From an uncultured Acidobacteriota bacterium (lineage in GTDB: Bacteria > Acidobacteriota > Thermoanaerobaculia > Multivoradales > SZUA-115), in contig CAWDVR010000003.1 in assembly GCA_963805975.1 (NCBI GenBank), positions 864,001 to 928,000 of the forward strand: a stretch of 64,000 nt of DNA, in the 5' to 3' direction. The notes beneath the pieces were generated by a model. It saw only the letters and a list, made by a program, of their open reading frames with translations. It ran no database searches and had not been told where the DNA came from. Position numbers and translations under genes: made by a program. Shown here piece by piece: positions 28,303 to 60,980 of the stretch. How positions within the stretch are numbered: the stretch's first letter is position 1; the number at the start of each line of letters is the position of its first letter.

Positions 28303-29157
28303 ATGAGCGTCGAGGTCGCCCTACCCGGTGGGTTCGAGCACGGCGGAAGCTGGCGCCGGCGGGTGGCGCTGCGGCCTCTCTCGGGCCGGGACCAGGCGTT
28401 CCTGGCCGACGAGCTCGCCGGTGCCCGGCCGGCGGCCCGCACCACCGCGCTCCTCGGGCGCTGCGTGACGCTCGATCCGGGCCTGCCGCCGGCGGGCGCA
28501 GAGCTGGTGCGCGCGCTCACCATCGGGGACCGCGAGGCGCTGCTCTTGCACCTGCGCCGGGCGATGCTCGGCGAGCGCCTGTCGGCGGTCGCCACCTGCG
28601 CGGCCTGCGGCGAGAAGCTGGACCTGGACCTCGAGGTCGGGAGCCTGCTGCTGCCGCCCTATCCGCACGAGGGCGCCCTCCACCTGGCCGAGATCGAAGC
28701 GCAGGGCCGACGCTACCGCACGACCTTCCGGCTGCCCACGGGCGCCGACCAGGAATGGGCGGCGCCGTTCGCCGCCGACCGAGGCGAAGGCTGCGGCCCA
28801 GGGCTGCTCGAGCGCTGTGTGCGCTCCGTGGAAGACGAGGCCGGCATTCTTCTCCCGGGCCTGCCGCCCGCCGTGGCAGAGGCGTTGCCGGAGCTCATGG
28901 CCGAGCTCGACCCGCAGGCGGAGATCGAGATCGGCGCCGCCTGCCCGGCCTGCGGTGTGGGCTCGAGCACGCTCTTCGACGCCGGCCAGTACGTGTGCCA
29001 GGAGCTTCTGGAGCAGGGCGACCGCCTGTGGCGCGAGGTCCACCTGCTCGCCTGGCACTATCACTGGAGCGAGCGCGAGATCCTGCGGCTCTCGGCCACC
29101 CAGCGCCGGCGCTACCTTCGCCTGTTGTCCGAGGCACTGGCGGGAGAAGCCGCGTGA
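28303..29157 (+). CDS. eCIS tail-assembly/baseplate-associated protein with two CxxC motifs and a DUF6760-like C-terminus
   Basis: LTIGDREALLL, CAACG, CPACG, EVHLLAWHYHWSEREIL. Confidence 0.75.
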   Translation: MSVEVALPGGFEHGGSWRRRVALRPLSGRDQAFLADELAGARPAARTTALLGRCVTLDPGLPPAGAELVRALTIGDREALLLHLRRAMLGERLSAVATCAACGEKLDLDLEVGSLLLPPYPHEGALHLAEIEAQGRRYRTTFRLPTGADQEWAAPFAADRGEGCGPGLLERCVRSVEDEAGILLPGLPPAVAEALPELMAELDPQAEIEIGAACPACGVGSSTLFDAGQYVCQELLEQGDRLWREVHLLAWHYHWSEREILRLSATQRRRYLRLLSEALAGEAA

Positions 29158-29310
29158 GCCGCTTCCTGGAGAACCTCGTGCTCCGCGCCGCGGGCCTGCC
29201 GGCAGAGATCCGGCCGCGGGCGCTGCCGGAGGCGGCCGAGGCGGGGGAGGGGTGGAAGGGTTTGCACGAAACGGCTCGGCCCGAAACGGCTGGCACCTCG
29301 GAGCCGGGCG

Positions 29311-29709
29311 CCCCTCACCCTAGCCCTCTCCCCGCAAGCGGGGCGAGGGGACCGGAAAAGGCAAGCTCTCCGCCTTCTGTGGCTGGGCGGGGACGGGGTG
29401 AGGGCGGCCTGGAAGCCGCGTGCTTCCTCCTCCGCCCCTCACCCTAGCCCTCTCCCCGCAAGCGGGGCGAGGGGACCGGAGAAAAGGCAAGCTCTCCGCC
29501 TTCTGTGGCCGGGCGGAGACGCCCTCTCCCGCTCGCGGGGGAGGGCCGAGGTGAGGGTGGCCTGGAACCGCGTGCTTCCTCCGTCGCCCCTCACCCTAGC
29601 CCTCTCCCCGCAAGCGGGGCGAGGGGACCGGGAAAAGGCAAGCTCTCCGCCTTCTGTGGCTGGTCGGGGGCGCACTCTCCCGCTCGCGGGAGAGGGACGG
29701 GGTGAGGGG
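29311..29709. repeat. Three tandem BoxC-like palindromic doublet units
   Basis: CCCCTCACCCTAGCCCTCTCCCCGCAAGCGGGGCGAGGGGACCGG starts at 29311, 29435 and 29587; each unit closes with an inverted GGTGAGGG. Confidence 0.92.
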
Positions 29710-29743
29710 ATAGCTCACGAAACCGCGAGCCCACCGACTCGTC

Positions 29744-29853
29744 CCCCAGGTCCTTCGCTTCGCTCAGCACGACAGGTTCGAGCGCTGGAGCCTCCGGGGG
29801 CGGATGCGAAGACCGCCCGCCCTCGTCATCCTGAGCGCAGCGAAGGACCTGGG
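29744..29853. repeat. CGTC/GTCATCC-type REP doublet
   Basis: CCCAGGTCCTTCGCTTCGCTCAGCACGAC ... GTCATCCTGAGCGCAGCGAAGGACCTGGG (inverted pair). Confidence 0.85.
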
Positions 29854-30112
29854 CGGGGGAGCGCCAACGAGCACACGCCGGCCCGCCTGCTGCCCGCACC
29901 CGCCCCACTTGTGGAGCTTTCTTCGCCGAAGGCCGCGGCGCCCGCACCACCGCGCATCGAGGTCCACATCGGCCGGGTGGAGCTCCGCGCACCACAGCCC
30001 GTGATCGAACCCGAGCCCGAGCCTGCTTTCTATCGTCCACCGCGCGGCTTCGAAGGCCTGGCCCTGGCGCGGCGTCACCTGGACCGGCGCTGGTACTAGC
30101 GAGGCTTGCGCT

Positions 30113-55200: not shown

Positions 55201-55604
55201 GCGGGCCCGGCCTGCTCGAGAGCCGGACGACCTTCGGCTCGGCGCACGTGGTCGACAACCGGGTGACCGGTGCCGCGCTCACCTTCCTGATCCAGGTGCT
55301 GCGCCTGCCGCTCGCCAACAACATCGCCCTGGTCTTCGATCGCGTCACCTTCAGCCAGAACGCGTGCGAGCACATCGGCTCGGCCGGGGCCACTGGCACC
55401 ACGCAGGCCACGGTCTCTCTTGCCGGCATGCGGATGATCGTCTCCGGCAACCACGTGCGGGCCTTCCCGCAGCAGTTCAACTCGTTCCACCTCAACAACG
55501 CGACCTCGACGTTCCTCGGCAACGCGCACGACGGCAAGGTCATCGGCATCGGCCTCGTCAAGCCTCTCAACCCCAACGGCAACGATTTCAACGTCCTCGG
55601 CTGA
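52257..55604 (+). CDS. DUF6519 protein with a right-handed beta-helix (tail fibre/receptor-binding)
   Basis: QQGRVMLDADFNE, GYRGTENRLYRVEVH, FKWSRDNGS, HHYARLA, followed by PbH1-type repeats. Confidence 0.88.
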   Translation: MPGDHTRFSFDPFDDHIGVRMQQGRVMLDADFNELVEILDRRTRAGTLDTLGRAVVPAETPDGFEIAIGGASVTIGPGRLYVDGQLAENHGLVPRVWERHLAEERGTLPVPYEEQPYFPNVAVEAPFPAAGGPHLVYLDVWQRELTHLEDPELLEKALGVDTATRLQTVWQVKVLADVDGNCATPDGQIPAWVAATAPSAGRLTTAAVGVPTSNDPCVVNPAGGYRGTENRLYRVEVHTPGLLGDATFKWSRDNGSVGAAVTAISAGRDRLTVSRTRRDAVLRFSANDWVEVTDDWTELAGRPGVMAKVLSVDDVAETLTLTAPLPAGAFDEAAPAGRRTRVRRWDQKGVVLDSANNIVANVDVGGGTIPVDAAAAMVLEDGIEVSFGVDPAGGSFRVGDFWVFAARTVDASVEILTQAPPRGIHHHYARLAMVTFPGSVEDCRVPWPSFGRSCCTRVVRPGESIQAAIDSLPAAGGCVCLKVGVHEIRDTIRIARSNIHFHGESSGAVVRSREFITLLRIGDAEGRPVTDVKVESLGFELAVPGDNVVALIDVVRAADVTITDCRAACLESRAVSGIRLVRADRTVLDRLEVSGVRLGVWATERSRSVEVLDCRLTNLVVRQDPPGDCGILLEEIVDTGALQGSRVEGNRISGFLLGIVVNNNSLFGIPTSLAEGALVLRNEIFRSRLDAEEGGPRLWGIDVAAARCLVEGNVLLYDGTAYGGIRMAGDQGRVEGNLLVAPVRDLAGSLPLAILVGTEEPGEVGFGDGAVVSGNRVLGAQDGILLREVVEVEVIGNQIGGENTGLRVALGLLKARAATIAGNRIRGAAFALLATGGVGNRLLDNRITDCQIAIWTVSETDLEVRGNHVENVAWAGFMGFSALGVTRLVDNRFLHCAYGAPSNASAAVLATSLAFLPQSEVIVDSCEIRDAGVSPGGAPIAQAVSGIWVWALSATVRGNRLHFTDVAKVAANLEHRAIFLAGGPGLLESRTTFGSAHVVDNRVTGAALTFLIQVLRLPLANNIALVFDRVTFSQNACEHIGSAGATGTTQATVSLAGMRMIVSGNHVRAFPQQFNSFHLNNATSTFLGNAHDGKVIGIGLVKPLNPNGNDFNVLG

Positions 55605-55627
55605 GCGCCCGAGACCCGGAGACACCC

Positions 55628-55984
55628 ATGGCCATCGACACCATCCGAGAGCTGCTGAAGAATCACCAGGAGCTGCTGGAGCGCAACCGGCCGCGGCTCG
55701 ACGCGGTGCGCGAGGGCGGCAGGCTGCCACCGGAAGAGGTGCGCAAGCAGAAGGACGAGGAGATCGCCGCGCTCCGCGAGCGGCTGACCGAGACCGCAGC
55801 GGCCCGCCGCAAGGCGCTCGAACGCTATGACAGCGAGATCCAGCGCCTCAAAGACGACCTCGCCCGCCTGGAAGAGGGTGGCAAGAAGGTCGACGAGGTG
55901 CTCAGCGGCAAGCCAAGGCCCATCGCCAAGCCCAAGGCCAAAGCCAGTGGTGCGAAGAAGGAGCGGGTGGGTAGGAAGAAGTAG
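55628..55984 (+). CDS. Small coiled-coil protein with basic tail (last gene of the eCIS operon)
   Basis: GGAG RBS, heptad-rich 118 aa. Confidence 0.65.
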   Translation: MAIDTIRELLKNHQELLERNRPRLDAVREGGRLPPEEVRKQKDEEIAALRERLTETAAARRKALERYDSEIQRLKDDLARLEEGGKKVDEVLSGKPRPIAKPKAKASGAKKERVGRKK

Positions 55985-56000
55985 GACGATTTTGCAGCGA

Positions 56001-56140
56001 AGGGCGCCACCCCCCGACTCCGCCGAACAGAGCCGCCTCTCTCCGGCCCCCTCTCCCGCTCGCGGGAGAGGGCTGGGGTGAGGGCGCGTTACGAAGGCCG
56101 CTGACGCGACAAGCAAGGAGAGGGCTGGGGTGAGGGCGCT
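56001..56140. repeat. BoxC-like palindromic repeats left of DUF559
   Basis: CCCCCTCTCCCGCTCGCGGGAGAGGGCTGGGGTGAGGG plus a half copy GGAGAGGGCTGGGGTGAGGGCGCT (56117-56140). Confidence 0.9.
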
Positions 56141-56160
56141 GCGCATGCGAGGATCATCCA

Positions 56161-56538
56161 GTGAAGGCGCGCAGCGGTTCCGTGACTCGAGCCCGAGAGC
56201 TGCGGCGGGTCGCCACTGAGGCGGAGAAGGCACTGTGGGAGGAGCTGCGAGATCGCAAGCTCGGCGGGTTCAAGTTTCGCCGTCAGGTCCCCGTCGGAGC
56301 CTTCGTGCTCGACCTCTACTGCGCCCAGTCACGCCTCGCCGTAGAGGTGGACGGCGGCGGTCACGCCGAGGCCCAGCAGGCGGCCTACGACGACGAGCGC
56401 ACACAGCTCCTGGCTCGACGAGGCATCCGGCTGCTGCGATTCTGGAACGACGACGTGATGAGGCACCGCGAGGCGGTATTGGAGAGGATTCTGCGCGAGT
56501 TGGAGGGAGGCAGCAGCCGCGACGGCGAGGAATCTTGA
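56161..56538 (+). CDS. DUF559 (YcjD/Vsr-like) endonuclease domain protein
   Basis: ARELRR..TEAE..LW..LR, KFRRQ, DLYC, VEVDGGGH, LRFWN. Confidence 0.92.
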   Translation: MKARSGSVTRARELRRVATEAEKALWEELRDRKLGGFKFRRQVPVGAFVLDLYCAQSRLAVEVDGGGHAEAQQAAYDDERTQLLARRGIRLLRFWNDDVMRHREAVLERILRELEGGSSRDGEES

Positions 56539-56659
56539 GCGCCCTCACCCCGACCCTCTCCCGCGAGCGGGAGAGGGCGCCACCGCCCGACCCCGCCGAA
56601 CAGAGCTGCCTCTCTCCGGCCCCCTCTCCCGCTCGCGGGAGAGGGCTGGGGTGAGGGGG
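56538..56659. repeat. BoxC-like palindromic doublet right of DUF559
   Basis: GCCCTCACCCCGACCCTCTCCCGCGAGCGGGAGAGGG-spacer-CCCCCTCTCCCGCTCGCGGGAGAGGGCTGGGGTGAGGG. Confidence 0.9.
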
Positions 56660-56675
56660 CGCTACGCAGGCCGCC

Positions 56676-58820
56676 TCAGCTCGCAACCTTGCGAGCGAGA
56701 ACCCGCGAGCGCAAGCCCCTCACCAGGCGGGCCATGCCGCGCCGGAACCACCGCCCCTCGAGCGCGTCCCGCATGTTGGCGCAGTCGGCGTGCATCTGTC
56801 GCAGATAGGGGTACGGTTCGGTGGGCAAAGTCCCTTCGACCAGCGGGAAATGGTTGCCGGTCAAGATGCTCTGCGTGCGGCCGTCCATGTAGCAGACGGT
56901 GAAGGCGCGGCGCGGCGCGGGGGTCGGGTTCACGCCCGAGCGATGGATCAGCCAGTTGTGGAGCAGCACGGCATGGCCTTCCTCGACCTCGAGGTGGCGG
57001 ACGCGCTCGGCGGGGCAGTGGCGTTCCACGTCCTCCGGCTGCACCGTGCTGCCGTAGGTGGAGAGCAGCCCCAGGCGGTGCGACCCCGGGATCACCTGGA
57101 GGCAGCCGTTGGCCTGGGTCGCGGGGTCGAGCGCAACCCAGACGGTGACCAGCGGGTCGCGGTCGAGGGCCCAGACGGCGCCGCCGTCCTGGTGCCAGGG
57201 AAGCACGGTGCCCTGGCCCGCCGGCTTGTTCATGACCATGGCGCGAAAGATCGAGATCGGGGCATGCGCGCCGTACGCGTGTGCGCAGATCTCCCGGCAG
57301 AGAGGGTGCCGGACCAGGCGTGAGTAGTGCTCGTCGGTCTCGAGCCCCTGGATCTTGCGGTAGAGCATCGTGGGGCGCTCGAAGCTGCGGACGGCTTGCG
57401 GCAGCTCTTCGTAGACCCCTCCGGTGTCGAGCTGCATCTGCACGGCCGGGTTCTCGACGGCGCCCATCGCCAGGTCGTCGGCCCGCTGGCGGAGCTGCTC
57501 CAGCTCTGCCGGCTCCAGCAGCTTCCCGAGGTTCAGAAAGCCGTCACGCAAATATTGGTGCCACTGCTCTTCAGTCACCACCTTGCTCACCTCCGGCATG
57601 CGCTCTTCTTCGTAACGGGCGGCCTGGCCGGCGGGGTCGGCCGATCCCTCGCTGCCAGCCTGCCCCACGAGGGATGGTAGATCAGGCTCCTCGCCAGATT
57701 CGTCGTCAGGCTCATCGTGCCAGCCGAGCAGCGCTTGCAGGCGCCGCCATCTTTGCGCGTCCTCGACCACCAGCCGCTCGCGGGCCCGGATCATCGTGGC
57801 CCTCACCTCGTCGCGCCGGCTCCAGAGATCGCGGCAACCCGCCAACAGGCCCCCGCTCGAGGCGGCCGGCAGGGAGAGGCACCAGGGCTCCATCCCGACC
57901 TGCGCGAGGGCGCCCTGGAGCTTGATCCGCGTGTAGTCGTCGCGATAGAGCCCCAGGCACGGAACGGAGCCGGCGGTGCCGAACACCAGCGGGTGATAGC
58001 GCGACGACACTACCAGGGCCGCCCGCTGGGTCACCCACGCGGTCGCCGCCGGGGGCATCACGGGCAGGGACCCACAGTCCACACCCTCGGCGAAGAGCAG
58101 CCTGCGCAGCGCCATTCCGGCCTCACCGTCCTCGCTTCCCAGGCCGCCGAGCGGCCCGACATGGGACACGAACACGGGATGCAACCCGCTCTCGGAGGCG
58201 ACCCTCGCGAGCTGCGAGGCCAGCCTGCCGAGCTCGGCATGGGAGCCTGGCACGCCGAACGACGGATCGAGGGTGATGGCGAGAAACGGCTCTTCCAGCT
58301 CGGCGTAGTCGGGGGCCTCCTCCTCGGTCGGCGGGCGCCCCGCGAGCAGGAACGCATCGTCGGCCTGATAGCAGAGCCGCTCCGGCGGCACGCCGAGCTC
58401 CAGCGCCAGCCTCTCCGACGGACGCTCGCGGACTCCCAGGAGCTCGACCTCGGCCAGCGCTGCGGCCAGCGCGGAACGCTCGACGGCTGAGAGCTCGGGC
58501 CCGAGGGTCTGGCCGCCGGTGACGATCGGGAGCTGCCGGCGCCGGGCCTCGCGCATCCACAGGAGCCGCTGGCGAACGAGGTCGGGCCATGAGGAGGAGA
58601 GGTTGCCGCCTCCCGAGATGAACAACCCGCTGGCCCCGGCAAGCACCGCCCCACAGAGCTCTTCCTCGCCGGCGGCCGGACGGCGCCCGATCACCGTCAT
58701 CTGGCCGCCCGGGTGGTGCCGGCGGAGGGTCTCGAGGTTGGCCTCGAGCATGGCCTCGTCCCCGACGTGGAACGGCCTGGCGCCGACGTCCGCCACGATC
58801 ACCAAGGAGGCTTGCGGCAT
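56676..58820 (-). CDS. Fusion of polysaccharide pyruvyltransferase and phytanoyl-CoA dioxygenase (PhyH) domains
   Basis: N-terminal HVGDEAM, ISGGGN, GVRE and SSRYH. C-terminal WHQD, WVALD..ANGCLQVIPGSH and HRSG.N....RR. Confidence 0.82.
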   Translation of the reverse strand: MPQASLVIVADVGARPFHVGDEAMLEANLETLRRHHPGGQMTVIGRRPAAGEEELCGAVLAGASGLFISGGGNLSSSWPDLVRQRLLWMREARRRQLPIVTGGQTLGPELSAVERSALAAALAEVELLGVRERPSERLALELGVPPERLCYQADDAFLLAGRPPTEEEAPDYAELEEPFLAITLDPSFGVPGSHAELGRLASQLARVASESGLHPVFVSHVGPLGGLGSEDGEAGMALRRLLFAEGVDCGSLPVMPPAATAWVTQRAALVVSSRYHPLVFGTAGSVPCLGLYRDDYTRIKLQGALAQVGMEPWCLSLPAASSGGLLAGCRDLWSRRDEVRATMIRARERLVVEDAQRWRRLQALLGWHDEPDDESGEEPDLPSLVGQAGSEGSADPAGQAARYEEERMPEVSKVVTEEQWHQYLRDGFLNLGKLLEPAELEQLRQRADDLAMGAVENPAVQMQLDTGGVYEELPQAVRSFERPTMLYRKIQGLETDEHYSRLVRHPLCREICAHAYGAHAPISIFRAMVMNKPAGQGTVLPWHQDGGAVWALDRDPLVTVWVALDPATQANGCLQVIPGSHRLGLLSTYGSTVQPEDVERHCPAERVRHLEVEEGHAVLLHNWLIHRSGVNPTPAPRRAFTVCYMDGRTQSILTGNHFPLVEGTLPTEPYPYLRQMHADCANMRDALEGRWFRRGMARLVRGLRSRVLARKVAS

Positions 58821-59504: not shown

Positions 59505-60980
59505 TTGTTCGTCAATCGTCAGGAAGAGCTGCTCCGACTGGACCGCTTCGCGGCGCGCGAGGAAGGTGGGCTGGCCGTTCTCTACGGCCGGCGGCGGGTG
59601 GGGAAGACCCGCCTCCTGCTCGAGTGGGCGAGCCGGCACGACGGGCTCTACACCGTTGCCGATCAGTCGGCACCCGAGCTTCAGCGGCGTTACTTCGCCG
59701 AGGCCGTCTCGGGCCGGCTTCCGGGTTTCGCGGAGGTCGAGTATCGAGACTGGCGGAGCTTGTTCTCCCGCCTGGCGCGGGAGGCGCAGCTTGCAGACTG
59801 GCGTGGGCCGCTGATCTTCGACGAGCTACCCTACCTCGCTCTCGCCTCGCCTGAGCTGCCGAGCGTCCTCCAACGCTGGATCGACCACGAGGCGCGGGCA
59901 GCACGGTTGAAGGTGGCAGTCGCCGGGTCCAGCCAGCGCATGATGCAGGGCCTGGTGCTCGACCGGCAGGCCCCTCTCTTCGGCCGTGCGCAGGAGATCT
60001 TCGAGGTCCAACCGCTGGCACCGCGGGTCCTGCCGCAGGCGTTTCCTGGCAGTTGGGGAGCACACTGGGCCGAGCTGTACGCCGCCTGGGGTGGCATTCC
60101 CCGCTACTGGGAGCTGGCGCGGGAGATTCCCGGCGACGTCGCCGCGCAGATCGAGCAGTTGGTGCTCGATCCGCTCGGACCCCTGCACCGCGAGCCCGAC
60201 CGGTTGCTGCTCGAAGAGATCCCTTCGGCTCTCGAGGCCCGGCCATTGCTCGATGCGATCGGCGCGGGGGTCCACCGCGTCTCGGAGATCGCGGGCCGCC
60301 TCGGTCGTCCGGCGACGTCGATGGCCCGGCCTCTGGAGCGGCTTCTCGGTCTCGGCCTGGTGCGCCGAGAGGTGCCGTATGGTGAGAGCGAGAAGGTCAC
60401 CAAGCGGGCGCTCTACAAGATCGAGGACCCCTTCTTCCGCCTCTGGTTCCGTGTCGTGGCTCCCCACCGCGCGCAGCTCGCGAGCGGCACCGGCGAAACC
60501 CGGCGGCAGATCCTGGAGCGATTCTGGGAGGGTCTCCGATCCGAAGCTTGGGAAGAGCTTTGCCGCAAGAGCCTGCCGGTGTTGACCGCGGGCAGCGCCA
60601 TCGCCGGCCTCGGTCCGTGGGGCACGGCCTCTCGCTGGTGGCAGGGTGGTCTTCCGGAGTGGGACGTGGTGAGCGAGTCCCTCGACGGCAAACGGCTCCT
60701 CTTGGGCGAGGTCAAGTGGAGTGCCGAGCCTTTCGATCGGAAGAAGCTGGAGGCGGTCGGTCGTGAGCTGGCGGCCAAGCCCGAGCCACCACTGCCGCCC
60801 CGATTTCTCCGGCACTCCACGGTCCGGGCGCTCTTCGTGCCCGAGGTCGCGCCACGCTCCCAGGCCCTGCTCGCGCGGCATGGCGGTCCGATCGTCGTGA
60901 CGGCGGACGATCTGCTCGGCTCTGCCAAGCAGGGCACCGCGGTCAGCACCCGCAGTCGAGCCGCGCGGCGGCGATCGTAG
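59502..60980 (+). CDS. 'Archaeal-type' ATPase with HTH and DUF234-like C-terminal domain
   Basis: FVNRQEEL, YGRRRVGKT, IFDELPYL, GGIPRY, DPFFRLWF, GEVKW. Confidence 0.88.
   Translation: MLFVNRQEELLRLDRFAAREEGGLAVLYGRRRVGKTRLLLEWASRHDGLYTVADQSAPELQRRYFAEAVSGRLPGFAEVEYRDWRSLFSRLAREAQLADWRGPLIFDELPYLALASPELPSVLQRWIDHEARAARLKVAVAGSSQRMMQGLVLDRQAPLFGRAQEIFEVQPLAPRVLPQAFPGSWGAHWAELYAAWGGIPRYWELAREIPGDVAAQIEQLVLDPLGPLHREPDRLLLEEIPSALEARPLLDAIGAGVHRVSEIAGRLGRPATSMARPLERLLGLGLVRREVPYGESEKVTKRALYKIEDPFFRLWFRVVAPHRAQLASGTGETRRQILERFWEGLRSEAWEELCRKSLPVLTAGSAIAGLGPWGTASRWWQGGLPEWDVVSESLDGKRLLLGEVKWSAEPFDRKKLEAVGRELAAKPEPPLPPRFLRHSTVRALFVPEVAPRSQALLARHGGPIVVTADDLLGSAKQGTAVSTRSRAARRRS

Follow-up and report, generated by a model that had tools for sequence, protein, structure and literature searches.

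In four sets of cellular loci, repeats bracket DUF559 genes much more frequently than they bracket control windows, and this pairing of gene and repeat is general, occurring across several phyla. The window analyzed here, a stretch of 64,000 nucleotides from an Acidobacteriota genome, contains one such gene, and by sequence the repeat around it is BoxC (also PIT or TMECO), with a core as in E. coli. The gene product is a predicted PD-(D/E)XK nuclease of the Vsr/EDxHD type, not of the HUH type, and its active site is predicted to be intact. We infer that the enzyme acts on the repeats, and consider it somewhat probable from sequence comparisons that it nicks BoxC hairpin units and that through host recombination these units, and at times the complete cassette with the gene, are copied elsewhere in the genome.

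The repeat and the protein family were each known already (PMC1189080, PMC3424549; available text). BoxC/PIT/TMECO has been known since the 1990s, from over 260 proteobacterial genomes, as a repeat with unstable sites and no known mobilizing enzyme in the available text of PMC4666352. Full-text searches found no link between DUF559 and BoxC in the papers covered, with CIR represented through PMC2229807; older BoxC, PIT and CIR papers could mention one, and the supplements of PMC4666352 list neighboring genes and may include ycjD. If DUF559/YcjD is the partner, the orphan BoxC repeats would gain an enzyme that is testable in E. coli K-12 and Caulobacter, for which mutants exist, and the enzyme-plus-repeat design would extend beyond HUH transposases to a Vsr/homing-type nuclease. 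It would also account for the DUF559 domains and the repeat-coded peptides that unrelated proteins contain, and the VsrA phenotype could be read in another way.

Organization of the DUF559 cassette and its product

The cassette occupies a convergent gap, bounded by the final eCIS gene, which it directly follows, and by a pyruvyl-transferase/PhyH gene (Table 1). Each BoxC unit consists of a C-box CCCTCACCC, a 3-nt linker and a hairpin, and the boxes on both sides aim at the DUF559 gene. The right doublet is complete and spans 116 nt (56542–56657); as single-stranded DNA it folds at -56.8 kcal/mol (z -7.7, with 0 of 200 shuffles equally stable, Watson-Crick folding only). The initial annotation had placed doublets of about 120 bp on both sides, which holds on the right; on the left there is a spacer and one unit, plus a partial unit, and the outer (leftmost) unit of the doublet is absent from this genome. 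The inverted repeat that it described across the gene is reproduced on recomputation, and a long direct repeat, absent from that annotation, is present in addition. Units flank both sides of just 1 of the 4063 other called genes at a distance of up to 150 nt, and 2 of 4063 at up to 200 nt, the genes being those of a simple in-house gene caller. No sigma-70 promoter or terminator consensus is present in 55900–56800, and in 55500–57200 no Rfam family reaches gathering level, with sub-threshold hairpin matches only. A gene combining an AAA ATPase (ATPase_2) with DUF234, an archaeal-type architecture, lies 3 kb downstream of the cassette (59535–60980).

Table 1. Coordinates of the DUF559 cassette, its neighbors and a related array in the window
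Feature	Position	Strand	Remarks
DUF559 (YcjD/VsrA-like) nuclease gene	56161..56538	+	125 aa, GTG start; Pfam 126 bits
Left copy of 101-nt direct repeat, spacer and BoxC unit	56001..56101	+	95/101 identical to 56574-56674
Left BoxC unit, gene-facing	56049..56084		Hairpin 56049-56072, G-box 56076-56084
Partial BoxC unit, G-rich boxes only	56117..56140 (unit part 56117-56136)	-	22/24 complementary to 56538-56561
Gene-facing BoxC unit	56542..56577	+	C-box CCCTCACCC, linker CGA, hairpin 56554-56577; fits TMECO consensus
Doublet spacer	56578..56621	.	Second copy left of DUF559 gene
Second BoxC unit of right doublet	56622..56657	-	Hairpin 56622-56645, G-box 56649-56657
Last small eCIS-operon gene, outside cassette	55628..55984	+	G001 orthologue precedes different gene, no cassette
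Polysaccharide pyruvyl-transferase/PhyH fusion gene, convergent	56676..58820	-	Pfam
Gene-less BoxC array within small eCIS gene (about 29154-30099)	29311..29709	.	

The eCIS operon (25797–55984) looks complete, with sheath, tube, Pvc16, AAA ATPase, two eCIS_core, gp25, baseplate J and DUF6519 beta-helix proteins, and a congener (G001, contig C73) has an orthologue about 77–80% identical. The cassette does sit at the eCIS boundary as the initial annotation stated, but a functional tie is not borne out: the orthologous eCIS end in G001 is free of the cassette and its two DUF559 genes are elsewhere, so the position is incidental. A small eCIS gene at 29154–30099 (L069) is swollen by BoxC units; its frame, containing several units, is intact in G001 and interrupted within the array here, which could reflect decay or an assembly error.

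Empty-site alleles were looked for among relatives, and no clean one of the window locus was found. G001 does not serve as one, having a different downstream gene. A joint from 55995 to 56541 in a relative about 95% identical (X1) was rejected, since its short side is 28 letters and X1 also has a contig (56064–56570) over the DUF559 gene; a unit starts right after 55995 at this short joint, and an intact left doublet is, tentatively, the more likely interpretation than an empty site. For a second region, none of the joints listed from aligned contigs was usable as evidence of a skipped doublet. Nor are ycjD-negative E. coli strains empty sites, as the place is occupied by eefRABCD.

The window protein is the only DUF559 copy in the source genome (G000; 5.36 Mb in 6 contigs, 96% complete). 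It matches PF04480 at full length (profile positions 5–109 of 109, with a cut-off of 20.6 bits), with the conserved residues intact. Among its acidic and His residues (E22, D51, E62, D64, H68 and D77), D51, D64 and H68 are invariant in 115 aligned sequences, as is G65, and E22, E62 and D77 are near-invariant; the D..E.DG..H motif is intact at 95 of 100 DUF559 loci. A structure model (pLDDT 83) matches 3HRL (Z 17.6, rmsd 0.8, 94 aligned), 3R3P, which is the I-Bth0305I homing endonuclease domain (Z 12.9, rmsd 2.7, 95 aligned), and Vsr itself (1CW0; Z 10.1, rmsd 2.4, 100 aligned), and by this model 3R3P is the closest characterized fold. The description of the protein as Vsr-like, and as an enzyme different from RAYT, is thereby upheld at the level of the predicted fold. 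The 125 residues comprise the nuclease domain and one helix, with no NUMOD/HTH DNA-binding region.

BoxC units and their association with DUF559 genes

The 21-nt core CCCTCACCC-N3-CCCTCTCCC is the same as that of E. coli BoxC/TMECO, in agreement with the resemblance to enterobacterial BoxC remarked in the initial annotation, and the genome-wide count proposed there yields 120 exact copies (reversed control 0). With one mismatch allowed there are 132 units in 83 clusters: 44 box-out doublets, which hold 88 of the units, 36 singlets and 3 others. The repeat is multicopy, mostly extragenic (31 of 134 units lie within called genes) and found as singlets and inverted pairs, as are BoxC elements, and the TMECO consensus CCCTCNCCC-N3-6-GGGNGAGGG-N3-GGGNGAGGG is fitted by the window units at 56049–56084 and 56622–56657. 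Exact cores number 20 in a K-12 derivative, including one between ycjD and fabI; at E. coli ycjD, BoxC is downstream only.

The doublets are heterogeneous, with lengths of 87–206 nt and unique spacers (5 of 703 spacer pairs are alike). A T-type linker is paired with a C-type linker in 35 of the 44 doublets, where shuffling predicts 21 and 0 of 20000 shuffles reach 35, and no doublet pairs T with T; the two ends of a doublet are therefore non-equivalent. Target-site duplications at 45 doublets are no longer than at shuffled pairs, and a MITE, or an IS with terminal inverted repeats, was rejected for want of such duplications and of a conserved interior. Convergent intergenic gaps are favored, accounting for 29 of 64 repeat sites versus 226 of 2059. 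The array at 29311–29709, proposed to match the right doublet including a related spacer, does consist of the same units; a special kinship of the spacers falls away, since the spacer there ranks 7th–8th when all other doublet spacers of the genome are compared, and a score as good is reached by 51 of 990 spacer pairs (115 of 990 with arms trimmed).

Six sites were aligned and compared between G000 and G001. Two doublets are common to both, with diverged spacers; at two further sites G001 has a singlet where G000 has a doublet, and one of these is within hrpB, a place without any unit in four genomes that are more distant; one partial unit lies at a deletion junction; and one doublet is missing from G001 along with a second family of repeats, so that the ends are not those of the doublet. 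BoxC units are also translated, with an in-frame unit in HrpB and in-frame units in 7 of 30 NRPS A-domain loops; the latter probably derive from one insertion, with spacers diverged by local duplication. The large NRPS cluster concerned (contig C5 of G000, 179521–270146) has doublets translated in-frame in these 7 loops and in several linkers. A second palindromic family, with core GTCATCCTGAGCG, has 73 exact copies genome-wide (e.g. window 29745–29850), and there are 22 exact GTAG-type REP-like units in G000, 8 of them at most 200 nt from a BoxC unit. No RAYT, and no enzyme gene between copies of either family, was found in G000, and repeats can thus outlast or do without a partner enzyme.

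Flanking was scored as a motif-free inverted-repeat score of at least 30 between the two flanks of a DUF559 gene, at 64 cellular loci (including that of the window) kept from 80 with a DUF559 match after 16 partial or short-flanked ones were dropped. Inverted flanking repeats are present at 46 of the 64; of 165 pairs of control windows taken at these loci, 3 have them. Both flanks carry hairpins at 34 of 64 loci and in 0 of 165 control pairs. By set the counts are 16/20, 18/23 and 12/21 (the last being the phylum sample), and 12 of 15 loci on viral contigs are likewise flanked. The same code applied to a fresh alphaproteobacterial sample, of which the 30 best-scoring loci were taken, gives 23 of 30 against 2 of 82 controls, and 21 of 30 against 0 of 82 for hairpins on both sides. 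The controls are mostly coding DNA, which favors the contrast; the within-genome gene count (1/4063) is free of that bias. The initial annotation allowed that DUF559 genes might be flanked no more often than random genes, and the opposite is seen.

Repeat abundance and DUF559 also go together across genomes, with counts that are inflated by kinship and repeat patterns that were drawn from DUF559 flanks. Repeat-rich genomes were defined by a net repeat count of at least 15, a threshold taken from the first two samples and then fixed; they make up 11/14 of the genomes with DUF559 versus 8/46 of those without in the order sample, 5/17 versus 7/183 (the 7 including unpublished G082) in the phylum sample, and 32/48 versus 10/152 (9/151 without unpublished G282) in the alphaproteobacterial sample, where DUF559 copies and repeat count correlate with a Spearman coefficient of 0.45. 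A CCTT-AAGG variant, whose pattern was supplied by four of the five high-copy genomes, is present at 10 or more copies in 5/17 genomes with DUF559 and 0/183 others. The association has exceptions in both directions: G036, G050 and G054 in the order sample and G415 and G372 in the alphaproteobacterial one are repeat-rich with no full-length DUF559 match, and hairpins that fit the tested pattern are few in 16 of the 48 DUF559-positive alphaproteobacteria. In E. coli, ycjD is carried by 3378 of 5426 genomes; a spread of rows, in which ycjD is confounded with phylogroup (PMC12817139, available text), has 18–37 BoxC-like places (median 25) in 37 genomes with ycjD and 3–22 (median 6.5) in 22 without it.

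Repeat variants track the protein clades as well, in a tree of 90 proteins with hand-made repeat labels, many unlabeled rows and unsettled bootstrap. Proteins of G001 and G006 that have the same short-loop unit in their flanks form a group (97/88) with the window protein, and the third paralogue of G006 joins (99/96) a G002 protein whose flanks carry the long-loop variant. G006 alone has paralogues in more than one clade, with a different repeat variant for each. The co-variation across genomes that the initial annotation asked about is therefore seen in abundance, in three samples, and in variant, among kin that are not independent.

A proposed nicking model and its alternatives

DUF559 cassettes sit at changing sites and are often flanked by duplicated doublets. 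Two to six DUF559 copies are present in 17 of the 48 positive alphaproteobacterial genomes, close paralogue pairs occur within single genomes in the tree, and cassettes are found in unrelated operons. Direct repeats scoring at least 75 across the gene occur at 12/64 and 4/30 loci (controls 1/165 and 0/82), including a unique spacer at L001, L008, L011 and L029, and long inverted identity (score at least 75) at 20/64. From these sequences we infer that the duplicated doublets flanking cassettes point to nick-initiated recombination. At L165 (47/53) and L173 (45/63) the 5' end of the host gene carB is also duplicated, on the upstream side of the cassette; this duplication is not significant at 3 of the 5 loci tested. 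When repeats were masked and host DNA was searched for duplications, 6/90 loci against 2/81 controls had one, which is not convincing.

A nuclease with no strand-joining chemistry cannot transpose, and the simplest route would thus be a nick followed by host recombination. The enzyme would see a structured unit, that is a hairpin, often with a mismatch, plus the third box, as suggested by the lack of a separate DNA-binding domain and by the co-variation of clade with unit variant. Resolution of the nick would proceed through strand invasion guided by homology, or through a template switch from one unit to another, in place of cut-and-paste. An L-gene-R cassette entering a resident R-spacer-L by two template switches would give R-spacer-L-gene-R-spacer-L, and the window has this layout minus the leftmost unit, which the relative about 95% identical appears, tentatively, to keep. 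The same process would add or remove single units beside existing ones, giving doublets with unique spacers, and the cassette would be the autonomous form with the roughly 120 gene-less units as passengers. Unique spacers, toggling between singlet and doublet, local duplications and the absence of target duplications all fit nicking plus recombination. The SOS response caused in vivo by a Caulobacter DUF559 protein (PMC12907096) speaks for this model too.

The alternative that weighs most, rather unlikely in our estimation, takes DUF559 for a homing-type parasite that enters BoxC doublets, with the repeats spreading unaided through triplex or hairpin instability and host recombination, or by another enzyme. 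A doublet duplicated around the gene does show entry into a pre-existing doublet, repeat-rich genomes with no DUF559 occur, E. coli BoxC sites are intrinsically unstable and form triplexes in vitro (PMC4666352, available text), and IS110-family elements such as ISPpu9 are reported to target REPs for insertion. Against a parasite, variant-specific abundance follows the gene (5/17 versus 0/183), most genomes with no DUF559 are nearly repeat-free (median net count 1 in the order sample), and the cores are near-identical from E. coli to Acidobacteriota, which suggests selection by a protein. It is improbable that DUF559 is instead a Vsr-like T:G mismatch-repair nuclease for cytosine methylation, as proposed for VsrA, with the repeats passive or serving as transfer aids. 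This would account for the Vsr fold (1CW0, Z 10.1) and for the spacing of E22/D51/D64/H68, which equals that of VsrA E73/D102/D115/H119, and it accords with the VsrA-dependent SOS response seen in vivo in a Caulobacter cytosine-methyltransferase mutant (PMC12907096, available text). G000 has one C5 methyltransferase, on another contig and unlinked to DUF559; the VsrA gene is likewise reported to be unlinked to a methyltransferase (PMC12907096). Yet none of 100 DUF559 loci has a C5-methyltransferase motif in about 1.5 kb on each side, the window protein has no Pfam Vsr match, and the repair role of VsrA is itself proposed from genetics, with a predicted activity (PMC12907096); oriented flanking units, clade-specific variants, multicopy cassettes and in-frame insertions would be left unexplained.

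The initial annotation described a REPIN/RAYT-like system with a different enzyme, and the layout conforms to this; a fixed transposing doublet and a single-copy domesticated enzyme find no support, given the variable doublets with their unique spacers, toggling and lack of target duplication, and the multicopy DUF559 genes (17/48) at differing sites. Likenesses to REP/REPIN-RAYT systems as described in the available text of PMC3116915 and PMC3733652 include an enzyme gene flanked by a genome-wide repeat, inverted hairpin doublets, a tie between variant and clade, and a preference for gene ends. The differences are that the enzyme is of the PD-(D/E)XK Vsr/EDxHD type where RAYT is an HUH Y1 enzyme, that BoxC here has no GTAG tag and neither length nor spacer of the doublet is conserved, and that DUF559 is often multicopy, with near-identical paralogues at changing sites, whereas RAYTs are described as single-copy and immobile. 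The flanked gene is DUF559, and no Y1 transposase or RAYT was found, PF01797 and NF047646 having no match in the 96% complete G000. As for the doublet as replicating unit, the variable length (87–206 nt), unique spacers and toggling seen in the contigs speak against it and the heterotypic ends for it. A reading in which DUF559 literally takes the place of RAYT, excising and inserting whole doublets as single-stranded intermediates in the manner of a domesticated transposase, is in our view very improbable. The box-out inverted doublets (44/83 clusters) with their T-type plus C-type linkers (35/44), the one G000 doublet site that is empty in G001 and the REP-like preference for convergent intergenic sites (29/64 versus 226/2059) would agree with it, but there is no HUH/Tyr strand-joining chemistry, doublet length and spacer are not conserved (5/703 spacer pairs alike), two orthologous sites are singlet in G001 and doublet in G000, and the G001-empty site also lacks a second repeat family, so that its ends are not those of the doublet.

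Other comparisons are also partial. As in the BoxC/PIT/TMECO elements of Holder et al. 2015 (PMC4666352), there is a three-box consensus with a near-identical core, two paired linker types and a patchy copy number; the available text of that paper reports no mobility gene and has 0 mentions of ycjD or an endonuclease, and the E. coli K-12 copies are all intergenic, whereas units here are also in-frame within genes (HrpB, NRPS A-domains). EDxHD homing endonucleases such as I-Bth0305I (Taylor et al. 2011, PMC3239194, available text) share the catalytic domain with its conserved acidic and His residues, a fold-level match (3R3P, Z 12.9), and spread by break-induced recombination would be a further likeness; DUF559 differs in having no NUMOD/HTH, intron or intein, and in entering many unrelated places that carry the repeat, where a homing enzyme has a single cognate site in a gene. 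VsrA (Matthey et al. 2026, PMC12907096), E. coli YcjD and N. gonorrhoeae NGO0050 (3HRL) are DUF559 proteins that the available sources treat as repair-related or uncharacterized, with flanking repeats unmentioned in that text; the Vsr feature of a linked C5 methyltransferase is absent here. The DUF559 system is REP/RAYT-like in layout and probably homing-like in chemistry, and a member of neither. We entertain more tentatively, as possible though short of probable, a pan-bacterial selfish system of its own formed by DUF559 cassettes and BoxC units. In such a system a structure-specific nickase of 13 kDa, lacking recombinase and transposase activity, would seed hundreds of triplex-forming repeats, together with its own gene, via host recombination; it would co-evolve clade by clade with the repeat variant, insert in-frame into proteins and be SOS-induced in Caulobacter; and YcjD and VsrA would be misread members.

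Locations of other DUF559 cassettes

Cassettes lie directly before carB, in both orientations, at eight proteobacterial loci (L042, L164–L166, L169, L171, L173 and L174), and the 5' side of carB is a possible insertion hot spot. Two type I HsdM proteins that come from different families have a repeat-flanked DUF559 inserted in-frame at one and the same loop, and UvrA of a Bacteroidales genome also contains one in-frame (L013, L100 and L050). The second DUF559 gene of G001 (L009, contig C23) has a different repeat variant, and its contig may be foreign to the assembly; its insertion site is one that we take, from the translation, to be a sucC-sucD operon. At E. coli locus L057 (1420–1470) an unrelated 43-nt palindrome with perfect arms replaces BoxC upstream of ycjD and overlaps the gene start region.

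A clade from viral contigs (L079, L081–L092 and L096) has a GAAC-N7-GAAC LexA-type box about 100–120 nt upstream of the gene, with units on both sides; of 92 loci, 15 have such a box, and 14 of these 15 are on viral contigs. In L085 the DUF559 gene lies on the opposite strand between frames that, reading their translations, we presume to be terminase-like and portal-like. The layout of L085 is that of Caulobacter CCNA_02876, which is induced with SOS genes.
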